Position numbers and translations under genes: made by a program | Notes under the pieces: generated by a model | What the model was told of the DNA's origin: nothing | What the model saw: only the letters and a program-made list of their open reading frames with translations | The model's database searches: none | Shown here: in pieces, positions 1-61,860 of the stretch | Layout of the letters: the number at the start of each line of letters is the position of its first letter | Numbering within the stretch: position 1 is the stretch's first letter | Source: Ginglymostoma cirratum | Lineage: Eukaryota | Direction of reading: 5' to 3' | NCBI GenBank assembly: GCA_024137785.1 | Contig: JAHRHZ010000009.1 | Span: forward strand, 12,885,421-12,949,420 | DNA: 64,000 nt

Positions 1-113
1 CATCAGAAATGGGCCCATTTCTGATGAAGGGTCTAGGCCCGAAACGTCAAGCTTTCCTGCTCCTACGATGCTGCTTGGCCTGCTGTGTTCATCCAGCTCC
101 ACACCTTGTTATC
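1..113 (+). mobile_element. Short Penelope-like element, family A, with a minimal hammerhead motif (18-51); right arm of a palindromic insertion
   Basis: Reads CTGATGA-A-GGGT(CTAG)GCCC-GAA-ACGT-C. Bases 1-26 are a perfect palindrome (CATCAGAAATGGGCCCATTTCTGATG). The body is homologous to 26921-26995 and to 58459-58550 (reverse strand). Confidence 0.75.
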
Positions 114-296
114 ACTGAAGAGATGACCTGGTCATTATCACATGGCTGTTTGGGACAGCATTCTGTGTGTAAATTGGCCGCTGAGTTTCTTCCATTACAT
201 CAGTGACAATATTTTCCATGCGCTTTAGTCGCTAAGATTTTAGGGGCATCCTGTTGAGGGTGGAATATGCTAACTGAATACACATACTTTCTTTGC
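112..296 (+). mobile_element. 3' part of a Deu-domain-type SINE (SacSINE1-like)
   Basis: CTGGTCATTATCACAT..GCTGTTTG..TGTGTGTAAATTGGC..CATTACA.CAGTGAC, homologous to copies at 11.5, 45.6 and 49.8 kb. Family name is from memory. Confidence 0.6.
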
Positions 297-459
297 TTCG
301 GATTCCCTGTAACGCTGCTTCTGACTGCAGAATATCTCTGCTGAGATATTGTCTTTATTCCCGGTGTCTTTATTCTACAAAAAAAGGTGCGAATTAGTAC
401 AACCACCTAAAACCAGTGCGGCTGCTGAGGCGAAGATTCCACGGTCAAACTGAGTGGCA

Positions 460-584
460 AACACCTGAAGAAGGAGCGAGGCTCCGAAAGCTTGTGTTTT
501 CAAATAAACCTGTCGGACGATAACCTGGAGTCGTGTGATTTCTGACCTTGTCGACCCCAATCCAACACCGGCACCTCCACAACA
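460..584 (+). mobile_element. Short Penelope-like element, family B, with an intact minimal hammerhead motif (459-499) and a 13-bp TSD
   Basis: Reads AAACAC-CTGAAGA-A-GGAGC(GAG)GCTCC-GAA-AGCT-T-GTGTTT. Flanked by AAACTGAGTGGCA (447-459) and AAACTGAGAGGCA (585-597). Confidence 0.8.
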
Positions 585-2383
585 AAACTGAGAGGCATTC
601 AGTACTCGACAGTGTTCACTCCAATCGAGGGTCTTAATTAAAACTTAAACTAAATCACAGCAGCTGAGATTTCCATGAGAAGAAACAGATGATTTTAAAC
701 AAAGGAGAAACCGTGCTACAATACTGATACTATTCAAAGCATTAGGAGAGGGCAAGTGTAAGGTGTATTGGAGGGTGAGCGGGTCTGTGTTTAAAATCTT
801 TCACTGTAACAGTGACACGTTGGAAAGAATAGATCAGCGAAGCGGTGTCAATCACAGCTGTGGTGCTGTTAAATGGTACTGTGTACTCCAAAGTGCACAG
901 CTGGAATAGAGGCAGTGTTCCTGGAGAACATATAGTGGATGTGGGACTTTAGGAGGAGATGTCGTCACGAAGTGCTGGATTAAGAGGCCGGGACAATATG
1001 AAACATGTCAGCGTGCACTCGTATGATAAGGCTCTCACGAGGAATTTATTGGCCCAATGCTATTTCTATTTCTTTCTAATCTCGTTCGCCACATTCGTTC
1101 CGTGCAATCTGTCTCCATAATCTCCTGTGTCAGAATCACAGCCAATAGCACACAGTAATTGCGAGAGAACAGAAATATGCAAACACCCGATAAAGTGCTG
1201 CTCGTTACTCGTATTGAGGAGAATGTTGGATACTCGCTGCCTTTAAATAAGAAAACAACCGGTGGAGACACATTTGAGCAGGGAATGCATTGGCGGGGGG
1301 GGGGGGGGGGGGAGAGATAAAGAGCATTCCGTGTAGAATAGAGGATGGTTGCTTTGCTTCGTCCCGCCGATTCCCCATCCCCCTGATGTACCTCCCTAAT
1401 CCAGGGCCCTGCTACGGGGCACCTTCTGTTTCTGGGCAGATGTGAAGAAACGACCGTTGTCTATAGACACCGTATAACATCTGATAACCGAAATAACTTG
1501 GCGAAGGAAATTCGCCCTTAGAGCAAGGATATTCTGAAAGAGATCAAACTGTTACAAAAGAATATTACATTCAACACGTAACCGACTCCAGGAAGCACAT
1601 GGGAAAGCAGAGAGAGTGAGTTCACAGCAGGAGTTAGCGGGTATCGGTTCTGGGATTCTTTCGCGAATTGTCCCAAAAAATATGCTCCAATTTTGTGGAC
1701 GACACTTTGAGAACATCAGTTCTGACCTGTTTAAAACTTTCAGAAAACATTTCCCGTCCCCCTCAGTTTCAATCTAGCGAGACATAGCAGCACAGAATCC
1801 ACTTTCAAATCATTCGCCCCTACAATATTGCGAAGCACGTTGCGGGGGTCGGGGTTGGAAGAGGATGGGGGTGGGGGTGGGGGTGGGTGTGGGGGTTGGA
1901 TGTCCCGTTCATTTCCTTTATGAACTCGCTAATAGAGCGGAGATGGCCTTCCGTTTCACAGAGGCTTCTAGGTATATACAAAAATACGCCAAGCAAAGGG
2001 ACTGAAATCAAACAGCCTGCGGGAAACAAGGACTTTCATGTGTTGCGAGGGAGTGAAACGACTACCTGTTATTCTACGTGATTAGTACTGCTTAACACTC
2101 TTCTAATATTGCTTGAGATGCTGCCTACTTTCTCAGCACGCTAGTCTAATGACTTCGAGAAAACGCCGAGCCAGCTCATGCAAGGTTGACTCTCTCTGTT
2201 TAATGTGGGATTAGGAGCAGTCAGTAGCCCAACATTAGCAAAAATTATTGGGGGCTTCACCAAATAAAGACACGCAACCAGGAGCAGCCTAACTCACGCG
2301 TACTGTGGGGACTGCAACGTCGTGTATGAGCGGAGCCTGTGTCTAGCGACCACCCTGTGCGCTAGCCTCCTTGCCCAGAGGTA

Positions 2384-2506
2384 AAATACTGCAGATGCTC
2401 GAAAAATGCGATACAAAAGCTGGGAATAGCCAGCGGGTCCGGTGCCAACATCTATGAAGAGACACAGAGAGAGAGCGAGAGAGAGAGAGCAACTCTCATC
2501 AGAACT
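2384..2506 (-). mobile_element. Degenerate short Penelope-like element with an internal (GA)n tract
   Basis: AAATACTGCAGATGCT... matches the reverse complement of the tail at 60165-60214. It ends CTCATCAGAACT, which is AGTTCTGATGAG on the minus strand. Confidence 0.45.
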
Positions 2507-3184
2507 TTCCGCGGTCATCTCCGATCCATGTCGATGAGCTGACTAGTTTTAGGTTGAAAGGACAGTTTGAGTTTCTCCCAGAAACAGTCCCTGCTTGCAG
2601 TAGTCGCAGCATAACCCCAGCAATGACACTCCCCTCCAACCCCATTCCCTCCCCAGCGACCCACTGGAGAAAGGGTGAGAGGGCACCGGGGAATTCTTTC
2701 ACAGCCCTAGGGATTGACATACTACCCCATTAAATCCGACTTTTAAAATCGCGATAAGAGCACCAGAAATAGGAACAAGACTTAATAACCGGGCCCCGGA
2801 GCCTGCTCCACCATTCGCTATGATCCTGCCTGTATTTCTGTAGAACTTACACTTTCTCTCCCTGTTCCCATCTTCATCGATTCGTTTAGTGTCCAAAAAT
2901 ATGGATATTAATCTTGCATATACTCATTATTGAACACCCACAGACCTCTGGGTTAGATTATCCCAAACATTCACAATGTTCTGAGTGAAAAAATTCACTT
3001 CAACTTTGTCTTAAATAACAGATCCTACCCTGGTACTGTGACCACTCATCCTAAACTCACCAATCCTGTCCAGCATTTATACCACCGAGTCCTCCCAGGA
3101 ATTTTACACCTTAATGAGATCCCCTTCATCTAGATCATCTTGACCAGGACAACACTTTCATTCCAGACTTCAATCCTGGTGAAT

Positions 3185-3286
3185 CAGTTCCAAAGAAGGG
3201 TCACTGGACCTGAAATCTTAACTCTGTTTTCTCTCTACTGTTGCCAGACCTGCTGAGTTTTACCAGCACTTTCTGTTTTTGTTTTA
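3185..3286 (+). mobile_element. Degenerate short Penelope-like element, family C (hammerhead core mutated)
   Basis: CAGTTCCAAAGAAGGGTCACTGGACCTGAAATCTTAACTCTG...TGCCAGACCTGCTGAG, homologous to 60075-60214. Confidence 0.7.
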
Positions 3287-3327
3287 ATCTGGCTGGATCT
3301 TTATTATGCCCTTTCAAGGCAAATAGA

Positions 3328-3435
3328 CTGTTGTGGTGCAATGTCGCTACTTTTGAACCTGGGAGGTCTAGGTTGAAGTCCCACCTTCTGCAGTATTGTG
3401 TAACAACATCCTTGAACAGGTCAATTAAAATCTAT
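3328..3435 (+). mobile_element. About 110-bp tRNA-derived short SINE
   Basis: B-box-like GGTTGAAGTCC and terminus TGAACAGGTCAATTAAAA; homologous to 11256-11372 and 27255-27345. Confidence 0.55.
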
Positions 3436-6269
3436 CCTTTTTCTGATGAGATGGCTTATAGGTAGATATATCCTCATTGTGATCTTGTGCCTGATCTATA
3501 CAATGGTGGCAAGACATTCCTCGTGTTATGTTCCAACTAATTCAGTTCCAATAAAGGCTGACATGCCACTCACCTTTCTCAGCTTGTTACACTTGCATGT
3601 TAACTTTCTGTGTTTGTGGACAAGAACTCGAAATCCTAGCATACACTAGTCCCTTCTCTTTAAAAGCAAAGTTGTTTTCCATTCTCCCTACTAGTGGCAA
3701 ATTTCACACTTTCCCACATTATACTTCATCTATCATCTTCCTGACCAATCTTGTAAACAGTCTCTATCCCTTTACATTTCCATTACATCCTTTTTGCAGT
3801 TTATTTAGCTAGATATGAATGACTCAATAACAATCATTTTAAAATCTAAAATTATCATAAGCTTTTCAGTTAGCCACTGCTGTTACAATATCCTATGATT
3901 TTTAAAAAAAATTTCCCATGTGAATGCATATTCATGGAGAATTATGAATATTTCTTTAAATGATTGCCAATTTTTATCCTCCATCATACCTTTAAATCTA
4001 ATTCTCAATCTATTTGCCCAACTCACTCCCCTTAACTCCATGGCTGGCTTTCATTTAGTTTATCACCAGAGTTTCACGCTTAACCTTATGACACAGAAAC
4101 TTAATACAACATCCTATCATGTTGGTTCACTGCCTCTCAAAGGGACCTTTACTATAATTGTAAAACTAACCCTGTCTCGGTACAGAATAATAGATCTCAG
4201 ATAACCTAACCTCGAGCTGTTGCTTCAATAATATTCTGGAATAGACAATTTTGGAGTGGATTAAATTGCAACTATCGAGTAGTATTTATGTCAATTACTC
4301 AACAATCCAGAGAAAGTGATTGTGTAATTCCACTATCTAAAAATTTGAATTCAGTTTAAAAATCAAGGTTTCTTTGAAAACAAAAACAATGCTACCATCC
4401 ATAAGCCTGATTAAAAAGCTATCTTACTCTCAGTAAACATCTTTCAAGCAAAGGGCCAGGAACTGACCAGTTGAGCACATTTTAACATTAATTTAGTGAG
4501 ATGTGGATCACATGAGATACTTCAGTTAAGGACTAATGTCATATAGGGGTAAGTCATATACTTCTTGTGCAGTGGAGGAATATTAAATGGACTTATTCAC
4601 AGATGTGCAATACATTTAAGTTTCAGATCAGCAGGGATGTGTCAAAATTTTACCAGATACAGGTTATCACACCAAGCCATTGTGTTGATCATGATTAAAC
4701 AGAGAAGCAGCTGAATCTGTCTCTGTTTGCATAATTCTTAAAGTTCTTGCTTCCCCATGTCTGATCCATTGTTTCTTGCTCATCTCTATTTGGTTTCCAG
4801 TTCCTGATGTTTGAACTTATCACAGCAGTCCAAATTTCTGTTTATTGCCGCAAGAGTGGGGATAAATTAGTTCTTCCTCAAAGACAGCTATTTCCTGTTT
4901 ATAAATATAGTGTATTTAGGAAAAGCTTTCTCAACCCAAATTTAGGAAATCCAGCTTCATGTTACAGCAATTGTTTGCAGCCTCCAGTTTATAAATCATG
5001 GAAAACCCTACCACATTTTCCTATGACATAGTTCATCTATCAACATGCCAATCTCCAGTATTTACCAAGACCTTATTTCCACCCATTTTGTCTGTGCCAT
5101 ATTGATATTTATATCTCCATATGTATTTTCTGTCTTCAAAACCTTACTTTTGTTGTCACACTGTCACAATATAAATATTAAACTCTACATTTATAATGAA
5201 AACTTCTTGTGTGAACTTGTCACCTTGCAATGATACCTTTCATCCACCGGTGACGTTCAATTGCCTCAGTTCCTTAGAATGTATGTTAAAGATCCTCCTT
5301 TGCTTCAACAAACTCTGCTTCTAAAATTGTCATAATTTTTGATTTTTGACTAAATATGAAATCAAAATTATATTAGAAGCTAAGACAAAAAACAGGACTT
5401 TTACATGAGCCCTGTCTACCTGTACAACTTGGTCCCTTATCTCCAGCTTCTCCTCAAGTCTACATTTAGTCTTAACTTCCTCTGTTGGACTCCATAAGCG
5501 ATTAACTAGTGTAAGATGAATGGTGAATAAAATGTCTATCTACTAATGTCTCTTTGTCAATGAGGTTGCCAAGGTTGGTTGAATCTTATGCCTGAATCAA
5601 TTCTGTGCTAGAATCCATAGCCTGGCAGTCCCTTTGGCCAGGGTAACAGTGATATCATCTTGTCCCAAATGTCCCGTGAAATGTAAAGCACCTGTTATTG
5701 AGGGGTTGGCTGCTTGGAGCTTTGGTTATCAGAATTGGCTGATGATTGTCAGCAAAGGAAAGGTTCCAGCCATGGGCTAAATGGAGACAAAACCATTGAG
5801 AGCCCATACATCAGGAATGACACTTCAGCTTTGAGCTTTTCTTCCTGGATGTCTAATTCTTCATTTTAGGTCTGACTGCAGTTTCTACCAATAAGAATAT
5901 TGAGAAATATGCCAACTATTCAAAGCTCCATACAAAGGTGAAAGTTTTAAAATGACATTTAGCTCTGGTGTCACAATTCACGTGAGAAGCTATCTTTCGT
6001 CCTGCACACATAGCATTGTGAGTTCCAATTCATAACAGAAATGCAATTGCAAATGAAAGCTACATCCAGTATCAGACGACAACTTTGTCAATGGAGTAGT
6101 GTGTGGTGAATCTGGAGCCAAGAAACAATAGATGGAGGTAGTGGTTCTGGGCATGGAGTCGGTGAGTAGTGGCATGGGCTGTGAGTAGTGAATGCAGTGT
6201 CAGGTGATAAGTAGGGAGAGGTTACTAATCTAGAGCTGGTCAACAAGTATATAGAGATTTCCAATGATC

Positions 6270-16383: not shown

Positions 16384-16457
16384 AACGTTAACACTGTTTG
16401 TCACCCCACAGATGCTGCCAGACCTGCTGAGTTTCTGTAGCACTTTCCGAATTTATT
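16384..16457 (+). mobile_element. 5'-truncated short Penelope-like element, family C
   Basis: AACGTTAAC..CACAGATGCTGCCAGACCTGCTGAGTTTCT, a near-exact match to 60126-60150. Confidence 0.75.
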
Positions 16458-18339: not shown

Positions 18340-18859
18340 TCACATGTGAGTTAATGGGATGGTCCCGTTAACAGCCGTGCTGGGGCTCTGGTAGTGCTGA
18401 GCAAGGGGAAGCAGTCTGTTCTGGGATGGGTCCCCGGCTTCTCCTCCTGTCGGCAAGTACATGCTGATCATCTCTCTCAGGTCCCCGGAACAAGGGGGTC
18501 GGGAATGCGAGCTGACCGGAGGGCTGGGGGACGGTTCCGACTTGACCATCGACCCCAGGGAGAGGTTGGTGGCTCCCTGGTGGCTGTAACCGGACGGGAT
18601 GGGGCTGTAGGAGGGGGAGGCGCTCATGTAGCCCTGTGTGCCGGGGATGGGGCTGTACTGGAGGGACATGTCATAGCGGTGTAATTGCTGCGGGTGGTGG
18701 TGGTGATGGTGATGGTGGTGGTGACCCGCTGTCCCACCGGCGACGTTACCACTGGCGGCACTCCCCCCTCCTCCTCCGCCTCCTGCTCCTCCCGCAGCCG
18801 CTGTTCCTGCCGCCGCCAGCGCCGGGTGCTGGCTGTAAGCCAGTGGGTCCTGCATCATG

Positions 18860-18890
<31 letters not shown>

Positions 18891-19392
18891 AGCCCGGGTA
18901 AGCGCCGTTCGCCCAGCCGTTCATGTGAGCGTAGGCGCCGGCTCCGTCCAGCCGCTGGTTCAAACCTGGAGGCGTGCTCATTGCCCCGGGGCCAGGGGAG
19001 AGCAAGCCGGCGGGCAGCGAGTACTTGTCCTTTTTGAGCAGGGTCTTGGTCTTGCGGCGGGGCCGGTATTTATAATCCGGGTGCTCCTTCATGTGCAGCG
19101 CCCGCAGCCTTTTGGCCTCGTCGATGAACGGGCGCTTCTCGGCCTCGGACATGAGTTTCCACTCAGCCCCCAGGCGCTTGCTGATCTCCGAGTTGTGCAT
19201 CTTCGGGTTCTCCTGAGCCATCTTCCGGCGCTGACCCCGGGACCACACCATGAACGCGTTCATCGGCCGCTTGACCCGCTCGCCGCTCAGTTTGCCGTTA
19301 GTGCCGCCTGTGGGCACCGGGGTTCCGGTACTCGGGGCACTGACTGGGTGTCCCGGGGACTGCAGCTCGCCCTCCATCATCAAGCTATACAT
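18340..19392 (-). CDS. SOX1: SOX1, SoxB1 HMG-box transcription factor, intronless, 350 aa
   Basis: The ORF starts MYSLMME and contains the HMG box [76 protein letters not shown] and the group-B motif KKDKYSL. SOX1-type segments include [11 protein letters not shown]-polyA-MMQ, a His-rich tract, [27 protein letters not shown] and C-terminal NGTIPLTHM. Confidence 0.96.
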
Positions 19393-19700
19393 TCAAGCGG
19401 TACCCGGTTCCCGGGGAGGGGGGGGGGTGTACAGCAGCCTGGCCAGGAAGGAGGTGTTGGGGTGGGTGGGGTGGTGGTGGTGGGGTGGGGGAGGAGTGGG
19501 CGGGGAGGAAGCAGCCGGTGCTGGGGCAACTCCCCGTTCCTTTAGCCCACTCCAATTCCACACCCCCACCCCCTCCCCACCCGCGCCAGCCGTTAGACTC
19601 GGAGAGCGGGCTTCACCGACCAGAGACTGGGCACGGGCACCCGAAGCGCTGCCGTTTACACAGGAGACTGCAGAGTCATTCGGTTTGAAACCAGTTGGAA

Positions 19701-20146
19701 CTCGGTGCAGAGTTGATCGGTTTAGACTCGGTGCAAAGTTGCTCGGTGTAAATTCGGTGCAAAGTTGCACAAGTTTAGAGTCGGTGCAGAGTTGCACAGG
19801 TTTATATTCGATGCGGAGTTGCTCAGGTTTAGAATCGGTGAGGAGTTGCTCAGGTTTAGAATCGGTGCAGACTTGCTCAGGTTTAGATTCGATGCAGACT
19901 TGCTCAGGTTTAGAATCGGTGCAGACTTGCTTAGGTTTAGATTCGATGCAGACTTGCTCAGGTTTAGAATCGGTGCAGACTTGCTCGGGTGTAGATTCGA
20001 TGCAGACTTGCTCAGGTTTAGAATCGGTGCAGACTTTTGCTTAGGTTTAGATTCGATGCAGACTTGCTCAGGTTTAGAATCGGTGCAGACTTGCTCGGGT
20101 GTAGATTCGGTGCAGAGTCGCTCGGTGCAGATTCGCTCAGGTTTGA
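19701..20146. repeat. 27-bp minisatellite (about 16 units) with a 54-bp higher-order alternation, between the promoter cluster and the SOX1 ATG
   Basis: Units GCAGACTTGCTCAGGTTTAGAATCGGT and GCAGACTTGCTCAGGTTTAGATTCGAT alternate in the core. The edges are degenerate and there is a 2-bp insertion near 20035-38. Confidence 0.95.
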
Positions 20147-25740: not shown

Positions 25741-25908
25741 AAATATGGTGAATTCTGGAAATCTGAAATAGAAACAGAAAATACTGGAAATACGCAGCCC
25801 ATGTGCCAGCATCAACAGTGAAACAACAGTTTCGGGTCTTCCACGTGTTAACTGTGTTTCTTTCCGTACAGACAGTGCTTGGTATTTCTGGCGTTCCTGT
25901 TTTATTTA
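25741..25908. mobile_element. Old degenerate head-to-head pair of Penelope-like arms
   Basis: CTGAAATAGAAACAGAAAATACTGGAAAT...GTTTCGGGTC followed by GTTAACTGTGTTTC..CAGA..CTGTTTTATTT. Confidence 0.45.
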
Positions 25909-26861
25909 AGCCAATAGCCAGAGCTGAATAAAGCGCATCGAGCTAATACCGACTAAATGTGATCTTTGCCCTCGTTAATCTGCTCGGTCAGTTAGTTGAG
26001 TTACAAAGCCGTCGCGATCCGACGCTTGATTCTATTGGTTGGAAACATTTCCACAAGCGCTTGCACTTCGATCGGAGCTGCACCGAATTGTTAAACACAA
26101 TTACCGTTAGAAGACGGAAACGTGGGTTTTCAAAGTTCCTTTAATGAACCAAAGTTTTCAAAGAAAAACTCACACAGATAGACAGGAAGGTACAGGCAAA
26201 CAAATCGAGTGGGGAAATCTTGTGGTTGCATTAGAAACCGATTAATATCGACAGAGGCTGGGCGCATGTAAGATATATTTGGCCCAAAATTCTACCCACA
26301 GGTTGCGATTAGCACCCTCCCTAAATACACTGCATCAAGCACCAATTTCAGTGTTCAGCTGACCCCTCATGTGCCCAGTACAGTCACGTACGGGTAAGCT
26401 ACTGGAACGCGTGTATAACCACGCTCATTTTTGTTTTTTTTTTGGGGGGGCGTTCATTTGTTGGCCAGATTTAAACGATTGATCCAGGTTATTTTGATCG
26501 CAATTCAACCCATTCATCTCCACGAATGCAGATTGACTGTGTAACCAATTTTGCACATCATGAGATACAGTTGTATTGGCTCTTCCCAACTCCGTTCTAC
26601 CCCAACCATTCTCTAGCCACCCTCGGTGCGCTTTGGTCGGAATGTAGCCCCAGTTCCTCTTCGGATCACATTTCCTGTATTTTGTTTTAAAATTGATAGT
26701 TCAAATGCGCCGAATCACATACTGAACACCACAGCGACTCTCAGGGAATGTAGGCTCCTTACGTGGTTCCAATGTATTTGCTTTGGGATAGGAATCAATT
26801 TAGTTGGGGGGCGACCGGAAGTACTTATTCACATTTTTTCAACGAGATAGGCAAATAATCA

Positions 26862-26994
26862 GAGATAAAAGGTACTGCAGATGCTGGAGAATCCGAGATA
26901 ACAAGCATGGGGCTGGATGACCGAAACGTCAAGTTTTCCTGCTCCTATGATGCTGCTTGACCTGCTGTGTTCATCCAGCCCCATGCTTGTTATC
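26862..26994. mobile_element. Internally deleted palindromic Penelope-like element, family A, with a 14-bp TSD
   Basis: Perfect 25-bp inverted repeat at 26896-26920 and 26971-26995. Direct repeat TAGGCAAATAATCA at 26848-26861 and 26995-27008. Confidence 0.85.
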
Positions 26995-27254
26995 TAGGCA
27001 AATAATCATTCATGGATACATTTAATGAACCATTCCTCACGGTAGCAACATCCTTAAAATGTCTCTTTTTTTTGGCTCCATTAGGCTATTGTCGGATCAA
27101 GCACTCAATCAACTCGAAGCTTGCGGAGAGATGTCTTAGTATTCAAAATATTAGGAAATCTCTAATGGCAATGAAGACTTGTAACATGCATTTGTCCTTG
27201 TATATGTTTATACTTAATTCGCGCGAAGTCCAAGTGCAAATATACACAAAGGTG

Positions 27255-27345
27255 CCCAGGTTGTAATCCTACCTCGGGGTCAGAAGGTCTGGGTTCAAGT
27301 CCACATGTGTCATAGCATGCCTGAACAGGTTGATTAAAAATATCT
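27255..27345 (+). mobile_element. Short tRNA-derived SINE
   Basis: GGGTTCAAGTCC B box and TGAACAGGTTGATTAAAAATATC end. Confidence 0.55.
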
Positions 27346-27357
27346 ACATAAAGCTGC

Positions 27358-27925
27358 TTGTGTTTATGGATGTGTGTGTATGAAGTGTGTCTGCACCGGG
27401 TTTGCATATGAGTGGGAGGTTATGCGTTTGCGTACAAGTTGTTTGTGTATGTACGCGCATGTGGATCTGTGTGTTGTCTCTGGGGCTGTGTGTAGGTATG
27501 TTTGTTGAATATGAATGCATATAGTGTAAGGGTACGGAGTAGATATGTGCGTTGATGTAGGTGTTTGCGTTAGTATGTATATAGGTGTATGAGTGTTGCA
27601 TGTGGTGTAGGTATGTGTGTCTGTGTGTGCGTTTATGTGTGTTGTAGGAATATGTGTGTAGCTGTTTGTGTGTGGTGTACGTATGTGTGTAGCTGTATGT
27701 GTGTTTGTGTGTGGTGTAGGTACGTGTGTAGCTGTATGCGTGTATGGTGTAGATATGTGTATAGGTATAGCTGTATAAGTGGTGTAGATGCGTATGTATA
27801 TGTACTGTATGACTGTGTGCAGGTGTGTGTAGTGTCAGCGTGTCGTGTTTGCTGCGGAAGTTTATGTACTTAGGTGAGTTGGTGTGAAGTGTGTGTGTCT
27901 ATATGTGCGGGTGTGTATGTTTATG
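27358..27925. repeat. Degenerate (TG)-rich low-complexity tract
   Basis: Repeated GTGTGT, GTGGTGTAGGTATGTGTGT and AGCTGTATG motifs. Confidence 0.9.
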
Positions 27926-31899: not shown

Positions 31900-33660
31900 C
31901 AAAAACGTCAATTGTCCCAGCTCCTAAGTGTATCAGATCTGAAATATCACAAAAACCCGTAGCACCAAACATCAAGTCTACTATATTCCAGAAATCAAGT
32001 GTACGCAGGCTTCAAACACCTAGTACATCAGGTTCAAACCCCAAATGTACCAGGTCTCAAAAAGCAAGAGAAGACAACCTCCAAATGCAAAGTGTACCAG
32101 ATCCCAGTCACTAAGTGCACAAGATCAAAAACACCAGTCTATGCAAGCTCCAAACTCCATGGATACCAAATCCTAAACACGAAGTGTAACAGATCCCTAA
32201 CGGCAGCAATCCAGAGCACAAATATGCAGTAACGTAGGTATTGGCTGAAACATACAGAAATTCAGAGCACAGACAGGCAACAATGTTGTGTCCAAATATG
32301 CAACAATTCAGAAAACGCAAACATACAGCAATCAAAGATCCAAACGTGCCAAATATACATACACCCCAACCCAGTCTCGGTACAAATATTCAGCAATCTA
32401 AAACACAAGTATGCAGAAATCTAAGGTTCAAACATGCAACAATGTAAGGAACAAAAATACAACAATTCATGTCCAAAATATACAGCAATCTAAGTCTGAA
32501 ACATGCAGTATTCTAGAATCCGAATATGCAGTCATTTAAGGTACAAACAGGCAGCAATCCAAGACCCAAAAATGCAGAATACTCCGGTCCAAATATGAAA
32601 CAGGAACCAATAAATTACTCAAAATTTTGCATTTACAAGGCCCAAACATGCAGCAATCTAAGGTCCAAATATGGACAAAATTGGACCAAACATGCAGCAA
32701 TCTGGAGTGCAAATGCACAGCAAATTGAGGCCTAAATATGCAGCAACCCAGGGCCCAGTCATGCAGAAACCTAGGGCCTAAACATCCAACATCTGGACAA
32801 AAACATTCAGCAATCTACAGCCTAAACATGCTATAGCCTTGAACACAAACTTGCAACAACATTGCATCCAATCATGTAGTGATCTAGCTCTCAAACATGC
32901 ATCAATCTAAGGAACAAACATACAGCAATCCAGGACTAAGCAGCAATCTAAGTCTCAACAGGCAATATTCTTGGGTATGAAAAGGTAGCAATCCAAGACT
33001 CAAGCATGCAACAAAACATGGAATAAATATGCAACATTATAAGATTCAAAATGTAGCATTTATAGAGCTCAACCATGCAGTGATCTAGGGCTTAAACATG
33101 CAGCAGCCTAGAAAACAAATTTGCAACAATGTGGGGTGCAAACATGCGGTGATCCTGCTCCCAAATATGTATCAATCTCCCAAGCATGCAGCAGTCTAGT
33201 GTAAGAGCATGCAATAATGTAGGGCCAAAATATGCAGTAATCTAAGATAACACATTTGCAGCAATACAGGATCCAAACATTCAGCAATCTAGAGCTGAAA
33301 CTTGTAGCATTCAAGGACCCAAATGTTCCATAATCTAGGGTACAAATAGGCAATGATCAAAGGCCCTGAAATATAACAATCCAGGACCCAAACATGCACC
33401 AAATTGAGCTAAACATGCAGAAATCAGTCCAAACATTCATCAATCAGCCAAAACATTCAGTAACCAAAGCGCAAACATGCAGAAATCCTGTGTTCAAACA
33501 TGGAGCAAATTGAACTAAAAATGCAACAGTTTGGAGCTGAATCACGCAGAAATCTAGGGCCCAAATATACAACAATCTGGGGTCCAAGTACGGAGTAAGT
33601 TGGGCCAAAATGCATCAAATTCTGGTCCAAAAATATAGGTACAAATATGCAGCAATAGGC
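31900..33660 (+). repeat. Diverged tandem array with a unit of about 23 bp (consensus near CAAACATGCAGCAATCTAGGGCC), roughly 70-75 units
   Basis: Successive 21-23-bp units from 32643: CAAACATGCAGCAATCTAAGGTC, CAAATATGGACAAAATTGGAC, CAAACATGCAGCAATCTGGAGTG and so on. The array resumes at 34755-34830. Confidence 0.9.
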
Positions 33661-37984: not shown

Positions 37985-39835
37985 GTCTCCTTGTAGGCAG
38001 CCCTCAGGATTGAGAATAAATTGCTTCCACTTCAGTTAGGTGGGTACTGAGATGGCTGATAAACCCAGAGTACAATCTTCAGATTCCATTACATGTAGGG
38101 CTAATAGTATTTGGTGGATAAGGTACATGAGCTGTTAAGATCTTTGCATGCTGTCTCCAAACCTTCGACTTCACCTGTGCTCCTGGTGAATTCACTCAAT
38201 GTGATTAGTATTTATCGAAATGATCCTTCTCCATTTTAGTTAGTCAGAAGTCAGGAAATCTCATTAGTGGCATGGATGTTTGACTTATTCAGGGATGTTT
38301 TGGAGATATCCAAAAGCATTTAGACCATCTGTCAGGGTCTCTTATCATGTCTGAGTCCCAAGTTGTGCAGTTGCTTTACGACTTAAGTGTTGGGCTCTTG
38401 AATGACATGTGAAGATTTTTTTAAGTCATGATTTTGATAGCATTTTGATTCTGGGCAGAATACTTAAGACCATAAGACCATAAGACATAGGAGTGGAAGA
38501 AAGGCCATTCGGCCCATCGAGTCCACTCCGCTATTTAATCATGGCTGATGGGCATTTCAACTCCACTTACCCGCACTCTCCCCATAGCCCTTGATTCCGT
38601 GCGAGATCAAGAATTTATCAATCTCTGCCTTGAAGACATTTAACATCCCGGCCTCCACTGCACTCCATGGCAATGAATTCCACAGGTCCACCACTCTCTG
38701 GCTGAAGAAATGTCTCCTCATTTCCGTTCTAAATTGACCCCCTCTAATTCTAAGGCTGTGCCCACGCGTCCTAGTATCCCCACCTAACGGAAACAACTTC
38801 CCAGCGTCCACCCTTTCTAAGCCATGCACTATCTTGTAAGTTTGTATTTGATCTCCCCTCAACCTTCTAAAATCTAATGAATACAATCCCAGGATCCTCA
38901 GCCGTTCATCGTATGTTAGGCCTACCATTCCAGGGATCATCGTGTGAATCTCCGCTGGACACGCTCCAGTGCCAGTATGTCCTTCCTGAGGTTTGGGGCC
39001 CAAAATTGGACACAGTATTCTAAATGGGGCCTAACTAGAGCATTATAAAGTCTCAGAAGCACATCACTGCTTTTATATTCCAACCTTCTTGAGATAAATG
39101 ACAACATTACATTCGTTTTCTTAATCACGGACTCAAACTGCAAGTTAACCTTTAGAGAATCCTGGACCAACACTCCCAGATCCCTTTGTACTTCGGCTTT
39201 ATGAATTTTCTCACCGTTCAGAAAGTAGTCCATGCCTGTATTCTTTTTTCCAAAGTGCAAGACCTCGCATTTGCTCACATTGAATTTCATCAGCTATTTC
39301 CTGAACCACTCTCCTAAACTGTCTAAATCATTCTGCAGCCTCCCCACCTCCTCCATACTACCTGCCTGTCCACCCAACTTCGTATCACCAGCAAACTTTG
39401 CCAGAATGCCCCCAGTCCCTTCATGCAGATCATTAATATATAAAATGAACAGCTGCAGCCCCAACACTGAACCCTGCGGGACACCAATTGTCACTGGTTG
39501 CCATTCTGAAAAAGAGCCTTTTATCCCAACTCTCTGCCTTCTGTCAGACAGCCACTCCTCAATCCATGCCAGTAACTCACCTCGAACACCATGGGCCCTC
39601 ACCTTACTCAGCAGCCTCCCGTGAGGCACCTGATCAAGGGCCTTTTGGAAGTCTAGATAGATAACATCCACTGGGTTTCCCTGGTCTAACCTACTTGTTA
39701 CCTCTTCAAAGAGAAGAAGATTTTTTTGTGAGAGAAGATTGCTGTTGGACTGCCTTTCTATCCGCCAGGTTTGAAGGATCTGCAAAGGCATTACCAGTGG
39801 TATTTCCTCTGTGTTTTTAGATGACTGTAAACTTC
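37985..39835 (-). mobile_element. Old RTE-clade LINE 3' fragment (37985-38460 and 39711-39835) split by a young CR1
   Basis: The minus strand translates in pieces like the RTE C-terminal region (..CL.ILQ..W..R.SN..L / ..HV....T...KQL...LRH..R..G..K.F.D..K.SL.K.NI...W..II). Confidence 0.55.
38465..39710 (-). mobile_element. Young 5'-truncated CR1 LINE (RT domain through the 3' tail), inactivated
   Basis: ORFs 39294-39866, 38937-39290 and 38557-39003 give VDVIYLDFQKA..VPHGRLL..GVPQGSVLG..YINDL..KFAGDTKLGG..LVRPHLEYCVQFW..TRGHSL..FFSQRVV.LWNSLP, broken by one stop and one frameshift. Tandem tail (TAAGACCA)n at 38465-38486. Confidence 0.95.
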
Positions 39836-39844
39836 TGAACAAAG

Positions 39845-40552
39845 AGACTTTGGAGTGCAGGTTCATAGTTCCTTGAAACTGGAGTCACACGTTGATAGGG
39901 TAGTGAAGAAGGCATTTGGTATGCTTGCCCTTATTAGTCCGAATATTGAGTATAGGAGTTGGGAGGTCATGTTGTGGCTGTAAGGGAGATTGGTTCGTTC
40001 ACTTTAGGAGTATTGCGTGCAATTCTGGTTTCCCTCCTATTGGAAGGATATTGTGAAATTAGAAAGAGTGCAGAAAAGATTTATGAGGATGTTGCCAGGG
40101 TTGGAGGGTTTGAGCTATGGTGAGAGGCTGAATAGGCTGGGGCTATTTTCCCTGGAGCACCGGAGTCTTTGGGGTGACCTTATAGAGGTTTATAAAATCA
40201 TGAGGGGCGTGGATAGTGTAAATAGGCAAAGTCTTTTCCCTAGCGTGGGGGAGTCCAAAACTAGAGGGCATAGGTTTAAGATGAGAGGGAAAAGATATGA
40301 AAGGGACCTAAGGTTCAACTTTTTCATGCAGAGGGTGGTGCATGTATGGAATGAACTGCCAGAGGAAGTGGTGGAGGTTGGTACAATTACAATATTTAAA
40401 AGGCATCTGGATGGATATATGAACAGGAAGGATTTAGAGGGATATAGGCCAAATGCTGGCAAGTGAGATTAGATTTATATAGGATGTCTGGTCGGCATGG
40501 ACGAGTTGGGCCAAAGGGTCTGTTTCTGTGTTGTATATCTCTATGACTCTAT
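39845..40552 (+). mobile_element. 5'-truncated CR1 LINE 3' end
   Basis: ORF 40017-40466 (QFW.P..KDIVKLERVQKRF.RMLPGL..TRGHRFK..FFMQRVV.VWNELP) and tail CTCTATGACTCTAT. Confidence 0.93.
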
Positions 40553-44756: not shown

Positions 44757-44847
44757 GAAAAGCTCAGCAAAGCTCAGCAGGTCTGGCAGCATCTGTGAAG
44801 AAAAAAATCAGAATTAATGTTTCAGGTCTGGCAATCCTTCCTCAGAA
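44757..44847 (-). mobile_element. Short Penelope-like element, family C, with a degenerate stem II
   Basis: AAAGCTCAGCAGGTCTGGCAGCATCTGTGAA is identical to 59995-60025. It ends CTTCCTCAGAA, which is TTCTGAGGAAG on the minus strand. Confidence 0.8.
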
Positions 44848-52204: not shown

Positions 52205-52490
52205 GATTCATAACCCCCATTAGCAGCTTTTCTTTACCCCCATCTCACCATTATCTATTCCTTCATGTGCACAACTGCTGTTCTGTCTGTCTGAGCTCCG
52301 TCTTCACCTGTCATTTACTCCTCCCACTCTAGCCCAGTCTTCAGCATATATACCAATCTTTTCCTACTTACAATCAGTTCTGAGGAAGGGTCACTGGACC
52401 CGAAATATTGACTCTGCTTTCCATCCACAGATACTGCCAGATACAACCAAACGTGCTGATGTTCTCATGTAATTTCTGTTTTAGTTTCAG
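52205..52490 (+). mobile_element. Longer Penelope-like terminal fragment, family C, with a hammerhead motif at 52376-52413
   Basis: A C/T-rich leader, then AGTT-CTGAGGA-A-GGGTC(ACTG)GACCC-GAA-ATAT-T-GACT and CACAGATACTGCCAGA. Confidence 0.7.
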
Positions 52491-55579: not shown

Positions 55580-55760
55580 GCGTAATCACTGACAAAAATC
55601 CTGGACTTCCCTCCCTAAGGAAATTGAAGGTCAACCTACAGCATGTGGACAGCAGCGGTTCAAGAAGGCAGCTCACTATCATCTTCTCAAGCGCAATTAG
55701 GGATGGACAATAAATGCTGGCCAGCAAGTGACACCCACATACCACGAGTGAATAAAAAAA
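55580..55760 (+). mobile_element. LINE 3' tail shared with the SINE family at 7630-7922
   Basis: GCAGCGGTTCAAGAAGGCAGCTCAC..CTTCTCAAG.GCAATTAGGGATGGACAATAAATGCTGGCCAGC. Confidence 0.7.
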
Positions 55761-56419
55761 CCTGCAATAATTTCCTAAAAGGCAGTGAGAACTCCAACTT
55801 GCCAACGCCCAGAATTCCATGCTCCCTGATTGACCTTTGCTGTCACAATCTATCCCAGTCTCAGACCAGAATGTTCAGGAGTCTGAACATCTACAAAAGC
55901 AAAATAAGTATCAGGAAAACAGTGTGAACAGCCAACACTATAATATGGTAAGATAATTGTGCAAATTTTCCCAGATGTGACTCTCTCTTTTGAGACTAAT
56001 TAGACTAGTCTAATTTAATCTAATTAGACTAAATCCCAAAAGCAGTCGAACTAATTTTGTTCCTGGCAAAGATAGTTTTGAAGGACTTTGTGACCAAGAT
56101 TGATGACTTGTATGATGAGTGGACTGCTCAGCCAATTCTTAAGAATTGTCTTAGTAATATCTGCCATTTAATGTGGAATTTATAGTTTATAACCAACCAT
56201 CACCTGCCTGTTCATTTATTTTACCTTAATTCTGGGTTTTAGCATACAAGTGGTTATCCAGGAGAGTATTTAGTTTGCTTTGTTTGATTTTTGTATGACA
56301 AGAATTCTTCTCTTTAAACCAGAATGTATAAAAGATCACATATCAGCTTGCTGGTTATAAAAACACAAGGTATATCTGTCATCTCTGCCAAAGACATGAT
56401 TCCTGCACAGAAATTCTTA

Positions 56420-56558
56420 CGAAGTACCTGAATAAGAAATGGTTGGAGGAATATGGACCAAGGACAGGCAGGTGGGGCTAGTTTAATTTGGGATTGTGGT
56501 CGGCATGGACTGTTGGACCAAAGGGTCTGCTTCCGTGCTGTCTGGCTCTATGACTCTA
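56420..56558 (+). mobile_element. CR1 3' tail fragment
   Basis: GGTCGGCATGGAC.GTTGGACCAAAGGGTCTG.TTCCGTGCTGT..CTCTATGACTCTA, as at 40490-40552. Confidence 0.8.
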
Positions 56559-56899
56559 AGTTTGAATCTCATATGTAAACACCTCACTGAGGAAAGGTTA
56601 GTAACAGGCCCTCAAGAAGGAGAAAATTTACTTTGGACAGGAATAAGGTTGTCAGATCTGTGCTACTTAGTCTTTTTCAGACAGAAGAGTGAACTAGTGT
56701 GTTGGTTAGTTCAACAAAGAAGATAAGAGAATGGGAAGAAGGTTGGTGACAGTGCAGACAAGATACTGCCATCACTGTTGCAGAAATCAGCTTAATCTGT
56801 TGATTCATCCTCTGTGAAAAATAAGCCACCCTCCCTTGTTGTATGCTTTACCTACCTATTTATTGTGTACATCATGGTTGAATAGTTGAAAAAAACTAG

Positions 56900-56998
56900 A
56901 AGTGTCACTGGACCCAGAACACTTACTCTGCATTCACTTCACAAATACTGCCAAATCTCTGGAGTTTCTCCAACAATTTCTGTTCTTGTTTCAGATTT
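56900..56998 (+). mobile_element. Degenerate short Penelope-like element, family C
   Basis: GTCACTGGACCC..ACTCTG..CACAAATACTGCCA..GAGTTTCTCCAACAATTTCTGTT. Confidence 0.6.
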
Positions 56999-58175
56999 GA
57001 ATGGTTCCTTTTTAATAAACTACCAATGAGCTATTTTAAATACACATTTTTGTGTAATCTGTGACTCCCAAACTTAAATTTTACATGAGATTTCTGAAGT
57101 GGGATCACAGTGCTAGACTTGAGACTTGAAAACAACGTTTATAAATCTTAGATGCAAATGAGTAAAACCAGGAGCTACAATGGCATTGAATATTACAAGG
57201 AGCAACCAATAGTAAGTCTGAACTGCTGAATGATTAGGATTAGTTTGTAATTTAAAATAAATGGTTTGATCACCTCCTTCCCCAGCTTGAAATCACTTTC
57301 CCCACGTTAGGTTCCCTCGCTAAACTGTATCGACTCTCCTTAGACAAAGGTTACTCTCCATACTGCAAATACATGCCACATTTGGTCAAATTTAGCATTC
57401 ATGTCAACAATTCTGACTCACCTCTGGAATTCAGGTCTTGAGTCATGGTTGGACCGAGATTGTAAATACCTCTGGAGCCTGCTTACTTTGACTGGAACCC
57501 AAACTGAGCATTAGCAAGCAGATGCTTGGTCAGTGAGGACCACTTGATAGCACTATCAACAACTACTTCTGACAATACGCTATGATTTGAAACAAGCCGA
57601 TAAGTTGGTAATTGGCTTGATTTTTTTTGGGGGACAGGATGTGCTAAGACTATCTGACACTTCCTAAGATAAATGCTAGTGTTGCAGCTCCATCTGAAGC
57701 AGCTCAGCTAATAATGTGGCTCACTCGAAAGCACACATTTTCATCACTGCAACCAGGTGTATCCAGTGCCTTTCACCATTTGTTGATATCACACAAAGTG
57801 AATAAAATACTGAATACTGTTATCCGTGACGGTAAAGACATTAGGAGATAGTCCAAATGGATCATTGCCTCAGCACCTCTGCCTGAAAATGGTTGCCAGT
57901 GCTTCAGTCTTGACTTTTGTACTCAAATGTGGCTTCTACCACCATTAAGCAAAATATTTTATGCTTCTGTTAGTTGCTGGTTGCACACCAGCATTGATAA
58001 CTGAATGTGACAAATCTTGACCTGAAATGAGGCTTGTGGGATTGTTTGATTCTGTCTATAGCTGCTAGATTTCGCCTTTCTACATTCATCCTTTGTTACT
58101 CCTGGCATGCTGTCTTGCACTTCTCAGTGAACTGAGGTTAGTAACTGGACTGAAAGTCATGGGGGAATGATTCGG

Positions 58176-58634
58176 ATGTGAAAATAAGAGATATGGGTAG
58201 TAAATTTGCAGGTGACATCAAAATAGGTTGTGCAGTGGATCGTAAAGAAGGTTATCTCAGCGTACAATGGTATCTTGATAGCATAGGCCAATGGGTCAAG
58301 GATTGCCAGATGGAGTTTAATTTAGATGAATGTGAGGTGCTGCATTTTGGAAAGGCAAATCAAGGCAGAACTTATACACTTGATGGTAGAGTCCTGGGGG
58401 GTGTTGCTGAACGATGAGTCTGAGGGGTGCAGGTGCATAGTTCATTGAAAGTGGAGTCAACACAGTGTGGAGCTGGAGGAACACAGCAGGCCAGGCAGCA
58501 CCAGAGGAACAGGAAAGTCAACGTTTCCAGTTGGGACCCTTCACCAGAGCTGATGATGCCTGGTCGGTGTGGACAAGTTAGACTGAAGGGTCTGTTTCCA
58601 TGCTTTATGACCCCATGACTCTATGATTCTATGT
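58176..58634 (+). mobile_element. Internally deleted CR1 fragment containing a family-A Penelope-like element (58459-58550, minus)
   Basis: ORF 58178-58417 reads SKFAGDIKIG..QMEFNLDECEVLHFG. The insert read on the minus strand is CTGGTGAAGGGTCCC..GAAACGTTGACTTTCCTG..GCCTGCTGTGTTCCTCCAGCTCCACAC. Confidence 0.75.
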
Positions 58635-59151
58635 ATACCAGGTGGAGGGTTTAGAATGTGGCAGAACACAATTTTGCTGAAGCATGTCACAGATGTTCAG
58701 TTTTGATCTGGCAGAACTGTTGTTAGTGTATTACATTTAACATGGTGGTGGCTGGTACACAACAGAATGGAGGGTGGTCTCAGTGTGAACTTGATCTCCA
58801 TGAGGTCTGTGCAGTGGTCACTCCCACTAAAGCTGTCAGGGACGGACACATCTTTAACAGATAGGTTCATGAGTATAAAGTCATGTAGGTTACCTGCTTA
58901 TGTTGTTTTATGCTTGTTCTGTTGTAAGATCAGGTTATTTCCTTCAGAAACTATATAAGTTACCCACCCTAAATATTGAAATAACAGCATCCTGAAATCT
59001 GGAATAGGGTCAATAGGGTTAAACAATCAGTGGTGAGACATTTTACCCTGCCAAACCTTCTGGAGATGGATGGGAACTCAATGGTTTTAGGTGCCAACAC
59101 CATAACTGTATAATCATAGCATTACACAAATTTATGACACAAGAGGCTGCT

Positions 59152-59511
59152 TACAGGTGTACAAAATGATCAGAGGTATAGATAGAGTAGACAGCTAGAG
59201 ACTTTTTCCTAGGGTGGAGGTAGATATTACGAGGGGGCATAGTTTAAAAGTGAGTGGAGGTAGATATAGGGGAGACGTCAGAGGTAGGTTCTTTACTCAG
59301 AGAGTGGTCAGGGCGTAGAATGCATTGCCGGAGAGGGTAGTGGAGTCGACCTTATTAGGGGCATTTAAGCGGCTACTAGATAGGCATATAGATAATAGTA
59401 TAAGGTAGGGGTGGAGGTTAGATAGACCTTAGGATTAGGGTAAAAGTTTGGCGCAACATCGTGAGCCAAAGGGCATGTACTGTGCTGTACTGTTCTATGT
59501 TCTATGTTCTA
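59152..59511 (+). mobile_element. CR1 3' end with a (TTCTATG)n tail
   Basis: ACGAGGGGGCATAGTTTAAAA (TRGHSLK), TTCTTTACTCAGAGAGTGG and tail GTTCTATGTTCTATGTTCTA. Confidence 0.88.
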
Positions 59512-59514
59512 GTA

Positions 59515-61860
59515 TTCTGCCTCTGCGGTCCAGACTAATCTGACGTTCCACTTCTGGTCTGCAGCCTTGCAACTTATGACGCTTCAAGTGTATATCAAAA
59601 AGCTTATTAAATGTACTGGATGTTTCTGCCTCTTCCATCCTTTTAGACAGAGAGTTCTAGATTCACTCGAACCTCTCGGTGAAATAATTTCACTCGAGCT
59701 CCCCTCTATTCCTTTTAATTATTTAAAACTCTGATCCCTGTGGCTGGCTTCACCCATAAGGGAAATAACTTTTTCCTATCTACTCTGTCCAGATCTTCCA
59801 CAACTTAACACATTTCAATTAAATCTCTCCTCATCTTCCTCTGTTCCAATGAAAACAGCCCCAGAGTAGCCAATCTTCCTTCATAGCTAAAATTCTCCAA
59901 TTGAGGCAACATCCTCAAAAATGTCCTCTCTACACTTTCTGGTGTGATCACAGCCTTCCTAAAATAAGATGAACAGACAGTACACAGTTGCTGGAAAGCT
60001 CAGCAGGTCTGGCAGCATCTGTGAAAGGAAAAAACAGAGTTAACGTTTCGGGTCCAGTGACTCTTCCTCAGAACGTTCTGAGGAAGGGTCACCGGACCCG
60101 AAATGTTAACTCTGTGTTTTTCTTTCACAGATGCTGCCAGACCTGCTGAGCTTTTCCAGCAACTTTGTTTTTGTTCCTGATTTACAGCATCTGCAGTTCT
60201 TTCAGTTTTTATTTAGACAGTACACTGTTCTCTAGCTAAGGTTAAAATGGTATTTGCCTAATAAAATAAAGTCGAGCCATATACACTTTGAATCACCTTA
60301 TCTACCTGTCCTGTTATCTTCGGTAATCTGTAGACATATAGTCCAAGACCCGCTGCTCGTCTGCAATTCTCATTATCCTACCAAATTTTGTTTTCTCTTG
60401 CCTCATTTTCTCTCCCCACATGCATTAATTTACACTTTTCCAAAGTGAATTCCATATACCACTTTTCTGCCCATCTGATTATCCATTGATATCTTCATGA
60501 GATCCACGGCCTTATTCCTCATTATGAACAATATGGTCAATTTTTGTATCGTTTGCAAACTCCTTGATTGTAGCCCACAACATTTCAGTCTAAATCTTTG
60601 ATCCATTTAGATTATATACCACTCTCATGGCCCCTCAAAACAGTCAGTCAAATTAGTCAGATGTGATCATCCCGTAACCAATTCACATTGACGGTTCTCA
60701 AATAATGTATTGCTTTGTAAATAATAATGAATATAGTCCATCAGAGCTCAGTCCAAGAATTTGCCCACCACTGAGGTACAGCTGACTGATTTAAAATATC
60801 CATTCTTTCTCTTTGTCCCTTTTACAAACAATGGAATGTTGTCAGCTATTCTCCACATTTGTAGCCAGAAAAAAAAAGTTCTTCATTATTTTCTCCCCTG
60901 CATCTCTCAACAGCTTCAGATACATTTCATCTGGATCTACAATTCTATTTGCTAATTTATCTACTTTCAAAGATGCTGAACACCTTAATTTTTTTCTCTG
61001 TCACTATCTTTACATACCTTCAACATTTCACACTGTTCCTTCACTACTTTGTGAAAAAAGATTCAAAGTATTCATTAAGAACCATTCTCACATCCATTCC
61101 TCCACACATATCATCTTTATAGTCTCTAATAGGTCCCACTTTTTCCTCAGTTATTCTTTAGCTCTATATGCATTTAGAAAACACTGTTGATTTTTCTTTG
61201 GTTTTACTTGTCAATATATTTTGAGTCTCCTTACTTTTCTAACCTTTTTTTATTTAACCCTTGGGTTTTCTGGACTTCTCTAGGCTTTTGTAGCATTGAA
61301 TGCTTGGTATCTGACATAAGCTTTCCTTTTTTTCCTCATCCTACATTGGAGCAAAGGCCATTCAGCCAGCTCTATCATTCTATGATATCATGGATGATCA
61401 GCTACCTCTATGCCAGATTCCTGCACTATTTCTACATCCTTTGATGCTATTAATATTGAGAAATCTAATGATTTTCAGTTTTGGACATGCTCAATGATTG
61501 AGCTCCCAAAGCCTGCAGGTACACAGAATCCCAAGGATTCAGACTCCTCTGATTGAAGAAATCCTCTTCATCTCAGTCTTAAACAGCCTGTCATTTATTC
61601 TGAGACTATGTCCCCTGGTTATAAATTCACCGGCTGCAGAAAACATCCTACCTATATCCATTGTCATGCCCTCTATGGATTATGTATTTTCAATGGGAAC
61701 ACCTTTTGTTCTCCAAGAATTTACAAGCCCAGATTCCTTAATTTCTCTTGATAAAACAATCCTGCCATCCCAGGGATCAGCCTGGTGACCCAAATTGCAT
61801 GCCCTCCGTGGCAAATATATCTTTGTCTACATAAGGAGACAAAAGCTACATACAATGCCT
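59515..61860 (-). mobile_element. Decayed minus-strand CR1 fragments (at least two copies)
   Basis: Similar to the plus-strand appearance of 38.5-39.7 kb, for example TGTATCGTTTGCAAAC (FADDT-like on the minus strand) and GAAGAAATCCTCTTCATCTCAG. Confidence 0.7.
59986..60214. mobile_element. Young palindromic Penelope-like insertion, family C: two head-to-head hammerhead-bearing arms plus a 50-bp tail, with an 11-bp TSD
   Basis: Arms 59986-60074 and 60075-60164 are near-perfect reverse complements with no spacer. AGACAGTACAC occurs at 59975-85 and 60215-25. Confidence 0.9.

Follow-up and report, generated by a model that had tools for sequence, protein, structure and literature searches.

Twelve repeats and their hammerheads

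The window examined here is a stretch of 64,000 nt within the 4.36-Gb genome of Ginglymostoma cirratum (G000:C9:12885421-12949420). It contains a SOX gene, several tandem arrays and twelve short repeats, some of which carry a minimal hammerhead ribozyme. An earlier sequence-only reading had described about a dozen dispersed repeats in three families, and all 12 regions did match natural copies of family A, B or C, with scores above the maximum of 100 shuffles each (Table 1). These short repeats are the pseudo-long terminal repeat (pLTR) or 5' untranslated region (5'UTR) ends of three Penelope-like elements (PLEs) with Neptune-type zinc fingers. Positions written with plus or minus numbers count from the C of the core CUGAnGA, which is 0.

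Table 1. Repeat copies found in the window, with the ribozymes of the first two.
Positions	Strand	Feature	Details
14..113	+	Family A (youngest) short copy, short 3' end	98% identity with the L097 and L100 copies
18-51	+	Ribozyme of 14..113	TTT / CTGATGA 21-27 / extra A28 / GGGT-GCCC / GAA / ACGT / C48 / AAG
460..584	+	Family B short copy, long 3' end	Flanked by 13-bp target duplication, 447-459 and 585-597
460-498	+	Ribozyme of 460..584	Core 465-471, GGAGC/GCTCC, AGCT, T493
2384..2506	-	Old C-related copy consisting of body and tail, without a ribozyme	Score 55 vs shuffle maximum 29
3183..3286	+	Family C short copy, start -7, short 3' end, mutated core CCAAAGA	Family alignment
16384..16457	+	Family C copy truncated within the ribozyme, without CUGAnGA	Family alignment
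25741..25908	-	Old relative of C that has lost its core; head-to-head partner on the plus strand	Family alignment
26861..26998	both	Family A head-to-head pair, core lost, 15-bp target duplication	Minus half 26861-26920 (tail), plus half 26921-26998 (start +18)
44757..44847	-	Family C short copy, start about -2; has a core, with breaks in stem II and palindrome	Core near 44845
52205..52490	+	Older family C copy that includes about 180 bp of pLTR upstream	Complete ribozyme 52376-52413: stem I of 4 bp, ATAT as palindrome
56899..56998	+	Old family C copy, start +5, core lost	Family alignment
58459..58548	-	Older family A copy, start -1, mutated core CTGGTGA	Family alignment
59982..60216	both	Family C head-to-head pair, 13-bp target duplication	Minus half 59982-60074 (short end), plus half 60075-60216 (tail); both start -3

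A strict descriptor detected four complete minimal hammerheads in the window, all on the plus strand, with cores at 21, 465, 52380 and 60078. The chance expectation was a mean of 0.03 and a maximum of 1 (100 dinucleotide shuffles of the window). The cut in the first motif is predicted between 48 and 49. The palindrome of the motif at 60078 is ATGT and so not palindromic, and stem II of the minus-strand copy in the same locus, at 60071, contains an A-C mismatch. Mutated cores were seen at 3185 (CCAAAGA) and 58459 (CTGGTGA), and CUGAnGA has gone through 5' truncation at 2384, 16384, 25741, 26862 and 56900. The common hammerhead layout that had been proposed is therefore complete at 4 of the 12 loci, while elsewhere the core is mutated or truncated or the stems are broken. 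An Rfam scan of the window at E<=10 returned no hammerhead family, only chance matches resembling microRNAs in a G/C-rich stretch.

The identification of a Penelope-type minimal type-I hammerhead, with an extra A and a palindromic stem III, held in all three families. The extra A departs in 0/75 copies of A, 2/29 of B and 1/32 of C, and the closing pair G10.1-C11.1 is G-C in all four window motifs. The commonest palindromes are ACGT in A and C and AGCT in B; ATGT and ACAT are products of CpG decay. In the master lineages of A, B and C the core is conserved, whereas variation is seen at N7, in loop II and in the stems. Among copies not selected for it, the core is intact in 46/75 (A), 11/30 (B) and 11/32 (C). 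The stems had also been said to differ between families yet still pair. The quoted stems are present, but families A and C are related and their stems II homologous, so that they do not provide independent covariation. The genuine contrast is between B and A/C, with two compensatory pairs in stem II and AGCT against ACGT, which amounts to only two or three lineages, a number that gives a covariation test no power. Moreover, the sixth pair of stem I in B (A459) belongs to the 13-bp target duplication, and one B subfamily has a stem II of GGACT/GCTCC, which pairs only through a bulged C and was amplified nonetheless (12/88 copies, e.g. L067, L079, L081-L083). Preservation of structure was seen between families, but not among copies, where bases of the core and palindrome are decaying at CpG.

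Parent elements, abundance and decay

The sequence-only reading had suggested that a partner encoding a reverse transcriptase (RT) and a GIY-YIG endonuclease (EN) would share the terminus of the repeats, and such a partner was found for A, B and C. In family C copies, remnants of an open reading frame (ORF) end in EEQHLIFRLGTLQPSGLNIEFNNFRA and a stop about 260 bp ahead of the core. This ORF end matched Pfam GIY-YIG at E=1.3e-5, over the cut-off, and was preceded by a weak RVT_1 match (E=0.007-0.013); broken natural C copies carry RT and then GIY-YIG, in that order. C sequence also lies directly ahead of the ORF in 25 of 30 loci, which were chosen by the N-terminal DNA of the ORF, and the likely start codon falls about 35 nt past the tail. 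Copies of family A were drawn from flanks and from a systematic genome sample. A GIY-YIG end lies about 400 bp ahead of the core in L097, the copy 98% identical to window 14..113, and likewise in L038, L024 and L091. Family A stands ahead of a likely ORF start in one locus (L027), and the evidence for an A ORF consists of the EN end and this likely start. Family B follows RT/EN remnants in L065, L078 and L089 (tblastn best E 8e-28, 3e-12 and 5e-16) and directly precedes a likely start codon and RT-homologous sequence in L079 and L168, with an RT ORF downstream in L079. These five loci are relatives of the window copy 460..584. The nearest named database proteins came from sharks, rays and skates, with PF26215 on most matches, RVT_1 on many and GIY-YIG on few. 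A PDB sequence search with the RT/EN piece gave 0 matches at E<=1.

The zinc-finger residues of C comprise a CNRRRCNTC linker, then C-S-Q-C ... AEH ... ACHF. The linkers of B are CHGNLCETC and CHGSLCKTC, with the CCHH finger only partly read, and A has CNRRKCYT followed by a stop (one broken copy), plus CTRC, AEH and ANHF. As judged from these translated residues, the CX4CXXC linker, together with CCHH in A and C, appears to fit the Neptune/Nematis type by the motif definition of Craig et al. 2021 (PMC8557442). Family A is younger than C, because young A copies are inserted within C ORFs (L055, L099, L100, L049).

Several features of the element ends were observed besides. In A and C, the 35-40 nt between the tail and the likely start codon resemble a branch point and 3' splice site, TTTAAC...CTCTTC[C/T]A[G/AG] (L102-L130, L027). 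Similar pyrimidine-CAG signals occur inside the A and C elements, and a 5'UTR intron as in Penelope is possible for both families. The 3' region of B upstream of the ribozyme bears a (CA)n tract.

Abundance was measured in a systematic sample of 80 fixed-position 10-kb stretches from 20 large contigs, in which 421,634 of 800,000 bases were readable. The sample gave 113 matches (A 59, C 49, B 5), merging to 88 insertions. This density, one insertion per 4.8 kb, agrees outside the window with the earlier estimate of about one element per 5 kb and corresponds to about 0.9 million insertions genome-wide if the sample is representative. Family matches covered about 3.7% of the readable sampled bases. 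Head-to-head pairs made up 24/88 insertions, compared to 0/88 tail-to-tail and 1/88 with a same-strand neighbour within 150 bp. Window bases 1-26 are palindromic and form the stub of an inverted family A copy clipped by the window edge, and 59995-60154 is predicted to fold into a single hairpin of -142.5 kcal/mol. A target duplication of 8-17 bp was detected in 22/88 insertions, compared to 3/870 controls with mismatched flanks. The 3' ends are bimodal and 35-40 bp apart, at +92..94 and +128 in A, about +81 and +118..122 in B, and about +96 and +133 in C. An inverted 5' copy and a tail of 30-40 bp are described traits of PLEs (PMC8557442), and the tail has been equated with two adjacent internal RT start sites (PMC11167929). 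An inverted pair, GATGCTG ... CAGCATC, is common to A and C (window 60127-60190; A copies e.g. L100:2336-2470), with a predicted fold in C. Its second arm comes from the tail, and the short 3' end is located between the two arms; the RT start sites may lie on this modelled stem.

Short and long copies were compared among all those retrieved, with long defined as a start at -60 or further and short as a start at -10 or later. Intermediates were excluded, and the long C copies are weighted towards one subfamily, the one used as query. The nearest-neighbour difference between the two classes was reached in 71/200 label shuffles for B and 179/200 for C, and every common non-CpG variant was also present on at least one long copy. 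Short copies are most probably the ends of autonomous elements, and the separate, non-autonomous ribozyme-bearing system that had been claimed is not supported; family A does show a skew, which would allow a short-only sublineage there.

Decay was counted in copies that span the ribozyme but were not chosen for it. Of the A, B and C copies, 39/75, 4/30 and 4/32, respectively, retain an intact core together with an intact stem II and palindrome. Departures at the core G that lies in a CpG amount to 13/75 in A, 9/29 in B and 14/32 in C, or 17-44%; for the CpG palindrome they amount to 15% in A and 37% in C. Since catalytic bases decay at CpG like neutral DNA, most copies are fossils. Non-CpG core positions of B depart no less than the body (0.067 vs 0.053). 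Most simply, this pattern reflects neutral decay after insertion and constraint in the master lineages. The hammerhead form was also not the minimum-energy dimer, by rough estimates in kcal/mol of -2.3 vs -33.8 (A), -20.5 vs -29.9 (B) and -8.6 vs -24.0 (C). In PMC4209133, a single minimal motif showed no cleavage and multimers low cleavage, and PMC8557442 calls the role of the hammerhead in Penelope elements unclear.

The 5'-end peak and the origin of the copies

The furthest 5' reach fell at -10..+7 in 49/88 insertions. The others lay at -40 or further (19), -39..-11 (3), +8..+24 (7), +25..+34 (5) and past +34 (5). When copies were selected on the body only, the mode of the starts was -3 in both A (20/106) and C (9/43), with starts at +25..+35 in 4/106 and 4/43, respectively. 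Among 203 near-ribozyme starts tested, a duplication could be detected for 15 and ended at -14..+8; the 5' ends of these 15 are therefore real junctions. In contigs from four public runs, most of the 15 inversion joints listed (552 more exist) were at 1958-1961 of L125, equivalent to -2..-5. Among 14 ORF-bearing C copies with a whole ribozyme, 8 had no upstream pLTR match and 7 of those visibly start at -2..-5. Because the 5' ends of A and C cluster before the core, with few at the cleavage site, the template was probably uncleaved RNA. A 3' splice site at the foot of the ribozyme (CAG before TT in C) was tried and rejected as a general cause of the peak, as A has no AG there and the flanks share no exon. 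Searches of the open-access literature, with Repbase and Dfam outside their scope, gave no account of these shark families or of a 5'-end peak.

Taken together, we consider that the copies are mostly decayed end-pieces of PLEs, made up of pLTR/5'UTR and an optional tail, whose insertion was likely the work of the parent RT and GIY-YIG endonuclease acting on probably uncut RNA (probability about 0.88). By analogy with the anole element (PMC11167929), the PLE protein would bind the 5' region of its own RNA and nick the target, and reverse transcription would then begin from either of two neighbouring internal sites downstream of the ribozyme, giving the two 3' ends. Priming in the downstream read-through repeat could lead to long, variably truncated copies. 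Priming in the first repeat could instead run off after 100-140 nt at the RNA 5' end, around -3, and so produce the abundant short copies. That RNA end might be set by transcription start at an initiator (Inr)-like A at -4, or by trimming up to the protein-bound ribozyme; sites are called Inr-like by comparison with the Inr consensus. The ribozyme would be of consequence in active master elements alone, where it would probably act weakly, either dimerised or helped by protein. We give about an even chance to the last step, in which the peak at -3 is the RNA 5' end. It is a tentative proposal, slightly less likely than not, that in A and C the hammerhead marks the start of the template RNA instead of cutting it, with the short copies being complete run-off cDNAs to a 5' end three bases before the core.

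Several results weigh against this account. Unreadable bases made up 47% of the sample. A tblastn search for PLE ORF remnants within the window found none, and Pfam recognized neither RT nor GIY-YIG in 6 short B ORF pieces (one unrelated weak match), leaving the B link to tblastn. A pLTR-like repeat was found both before and after the ORF in A, B and C, in separate broken copies and not in one full-length element. Short copies of family A were nearer each other than to long ones, a difference reached in 3/200 shuffles. At non-CpG core positions, departures are less frequent than in the body for A (0.031 vs 0.080) and for C (0.063 vs 0.112), with body figures that include subfamily differences, so that some constraint may be at work. 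The public-run data are contigs, which carry no start, end or strand of the RNA; the three runs provisionally labelled RNA give the same picture as the fourth, which has no label. Lastly, family B has no 5' peak: 23/94 starts were at -10..+7, scattered, and 41/94 copies were long. The prediction that B ends would follow an Inr-like A at -8 failed, with 2 starts at -8/-7.

Another possible explanation accepts the PLE ends and competes with the last step only. The 5' peak could arise from an RT stop or template switch past the folded, possibly protein-bound ribozyme, or from an endonuclease cut. The mode at -3 is the outer base of a 3-bp stem I in both A and C despite their different bases (TTT vs GTT), inversions arise at the same place, and B, which has a different stem I, shows no peak. 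By eye, no cap-derived extra G is evident at A junctions. However, RT generally stalls on entering a structure and not on leaving it, which counts against such a stop. In addition, the weak stem I does not form in predicted folds of whole elements, and several ORF-bearing 5' copies begin at the same place. We regard this explanation as somewhat less likely than an RNA 5' end, and as a real competitor for the last step.

It is considerably less probable that at least part of family A is a non-autonomous short element, like a short interspersed element (SINE) or a retrozyme, that is transcribed by itself from the ribozyme and depends on the PLE protein for mobilisation in trans. A fixed 5' start and fixed 3' ends, together with target duplications, would suit a SINE-like element, as would A variants that occur more often on short than on long copies (long vs short: column 70, 1/26 vs 15/62; column 44, 4/26 vs 32/62). 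A recent preprint also proposes non-autonomous, pLTR-derived retrozymes in vertebrates (bioRxiv 10.64898/2026.07.22.740005). On the other hand, short and long copies are unseparated in B and C, and the common variants all occur on some long copy. The anole RNA needed for activity reaches +172 of the ORF, past the RT start sites at 111-118 (PMC11167929), so a copy ending at an RT start site would presumably lack a required RNA region. A tandem retrozyme fits poorly with a same-strand neighbour pair in only 1/88 insertions.

Very improbable, in our view, is that the short copies were reverse-transcribed from RNA that the hammerhead had cleaved or that had been circularised, as tentatively proposed in PMC4209133. 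Conserved cores in the master lineages of all three families do suggest that cleavage matters at some stage, but starts would be expected at +28/+30 and only 5/88 insertions reach +25..+34. Furthermore, ribozyme mutants left in vitro insertion unchanged and no RNA-seq reads ended at the site in PMC11167929. Least probable of all is that individual copies are host-selected working ribozymes, e.g. near the SOX gene, since the complete layout in 4 window copies and the intactness of about half of the ribozyme-spanning A copies are met by intactness that follows family age, CpG decay that strikes the catalytic G12 and the palindrome, a hammerhead fold that is not the minimum-energy dimer and lone minimal hammerheads that stay uncleaved in vitro (PMC4209133).

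Surroundings and known systems

The SOX gene of the window is intact and consists of a single exon on the minus strand (18340-19392), with 350 aa and the Pfam domains HMG_box and SOXp. Its poly-Ala and poly-His tracts and its C-terminus suggest a putative SOX1. None of the 12 loci lie within 16.5-25.7 kb, around this gene. Just upstream of it is a 27-bp tandem repeat of about 10-15 units with several open frames (19700-20130). A TG-rich degenerate repeat with units of 31-39 bp lies at 27340-27900, and a degenerate 23-bp tandem array of about 1.4 kb, strongly A-skewed, at 32190-33610. Fragments of long interspersed element (LINE) RT, and repeated 3' tails with terminal CTCTATGACTCTAT-like units, were seen at 38557-39884 (-), 40008-40466 (+), 40483-40552, 56490-56559 and 58555-58624; these are presumably CR1-like.

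At about 3.7% of readable bases, the copies should be annotated as ends of Penelope elements; labels such as new SINE or working ribozyme would be misplaced. The 5' peak before the core provides genomic support for the in vitro result of an uncleaved template and an exact coordinate for 5'-end mapping. If the run-off proposal for A and C is true, hundreds of thousands of short copies would record Penelope transposition from uncleaved RNA and locate the transcription start.

Penelope has been listed among whale shark repeats (PMC8455134). PAc, a green anole element of the Poseidon type (PMC11167929, by Frangieh et al. 2024), differs from the elements described here, which carry a zinc-finger linker that Poseidon is without. 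As in PAc, there are two adjacent 3' ends, insertion seems independent of cleavage and the ribozyme lies near the ORF start. The PAc ORF begins inside the ribozyme, whereas the likely start codon here comes after the tail (B) or about 35-40 nt past it (A, C). Animal non-LTR retrozymes, for which a report from one chondrichthyan genome exists (bioRxiv 10.64898/2026.07.22.740005), are likewise related to pLTRs, carry a type-I hammerhead and are non-coding. They are tandem ribozyme-bearing units, whereas the copies here are single or head-to-head. A non-LTR retrozyme, as a tandem array of >=2 units, was accordingly rejected, with a same-strand neighbour within 150 bp in 1/88 only.

The EN+ PLEs of the Neptune/Nematis type (PMC8557442) share with these families an RT with a C-terminal GIY-YIG, the CX2-5CXXC linker and CCHH. 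They also share pLTRs from partial tandems, heavy 5' truncation, an inverted 5' copy and the 30-40 bp tail. They differ in that clear 8-17 bp target duplications are present here and the 5' truncation of A and C peaks at the ribozyme. The most similar ribozymes are the minimal hammerheads in metazoan PLE pLTRs described in 2014 by Cervera and De la Pena (PMC4209133), which have the same type-I core, extra base between 9 and 10.1, G10.1-C11.1 pair and loopless palindromic stem III. There, too, several families occur per genome, most motifs are single and come from truncated PLEs, and close opposite-strand pairs are found. Stem II is 4-5 bp here, and the text consulted of that paper describes no 5'-end peak and, together with 2 supplement files, gave no mention of shark or skate. 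The paper's counts of about 4,000 motifs in coelacanth and about 9,000 in Xenopus are a different measure from the roughly 0.9 million insertions extrapolated here. The kind of element was therefore already published in 2014 (PMC4209133), and these shark families are further members of it.

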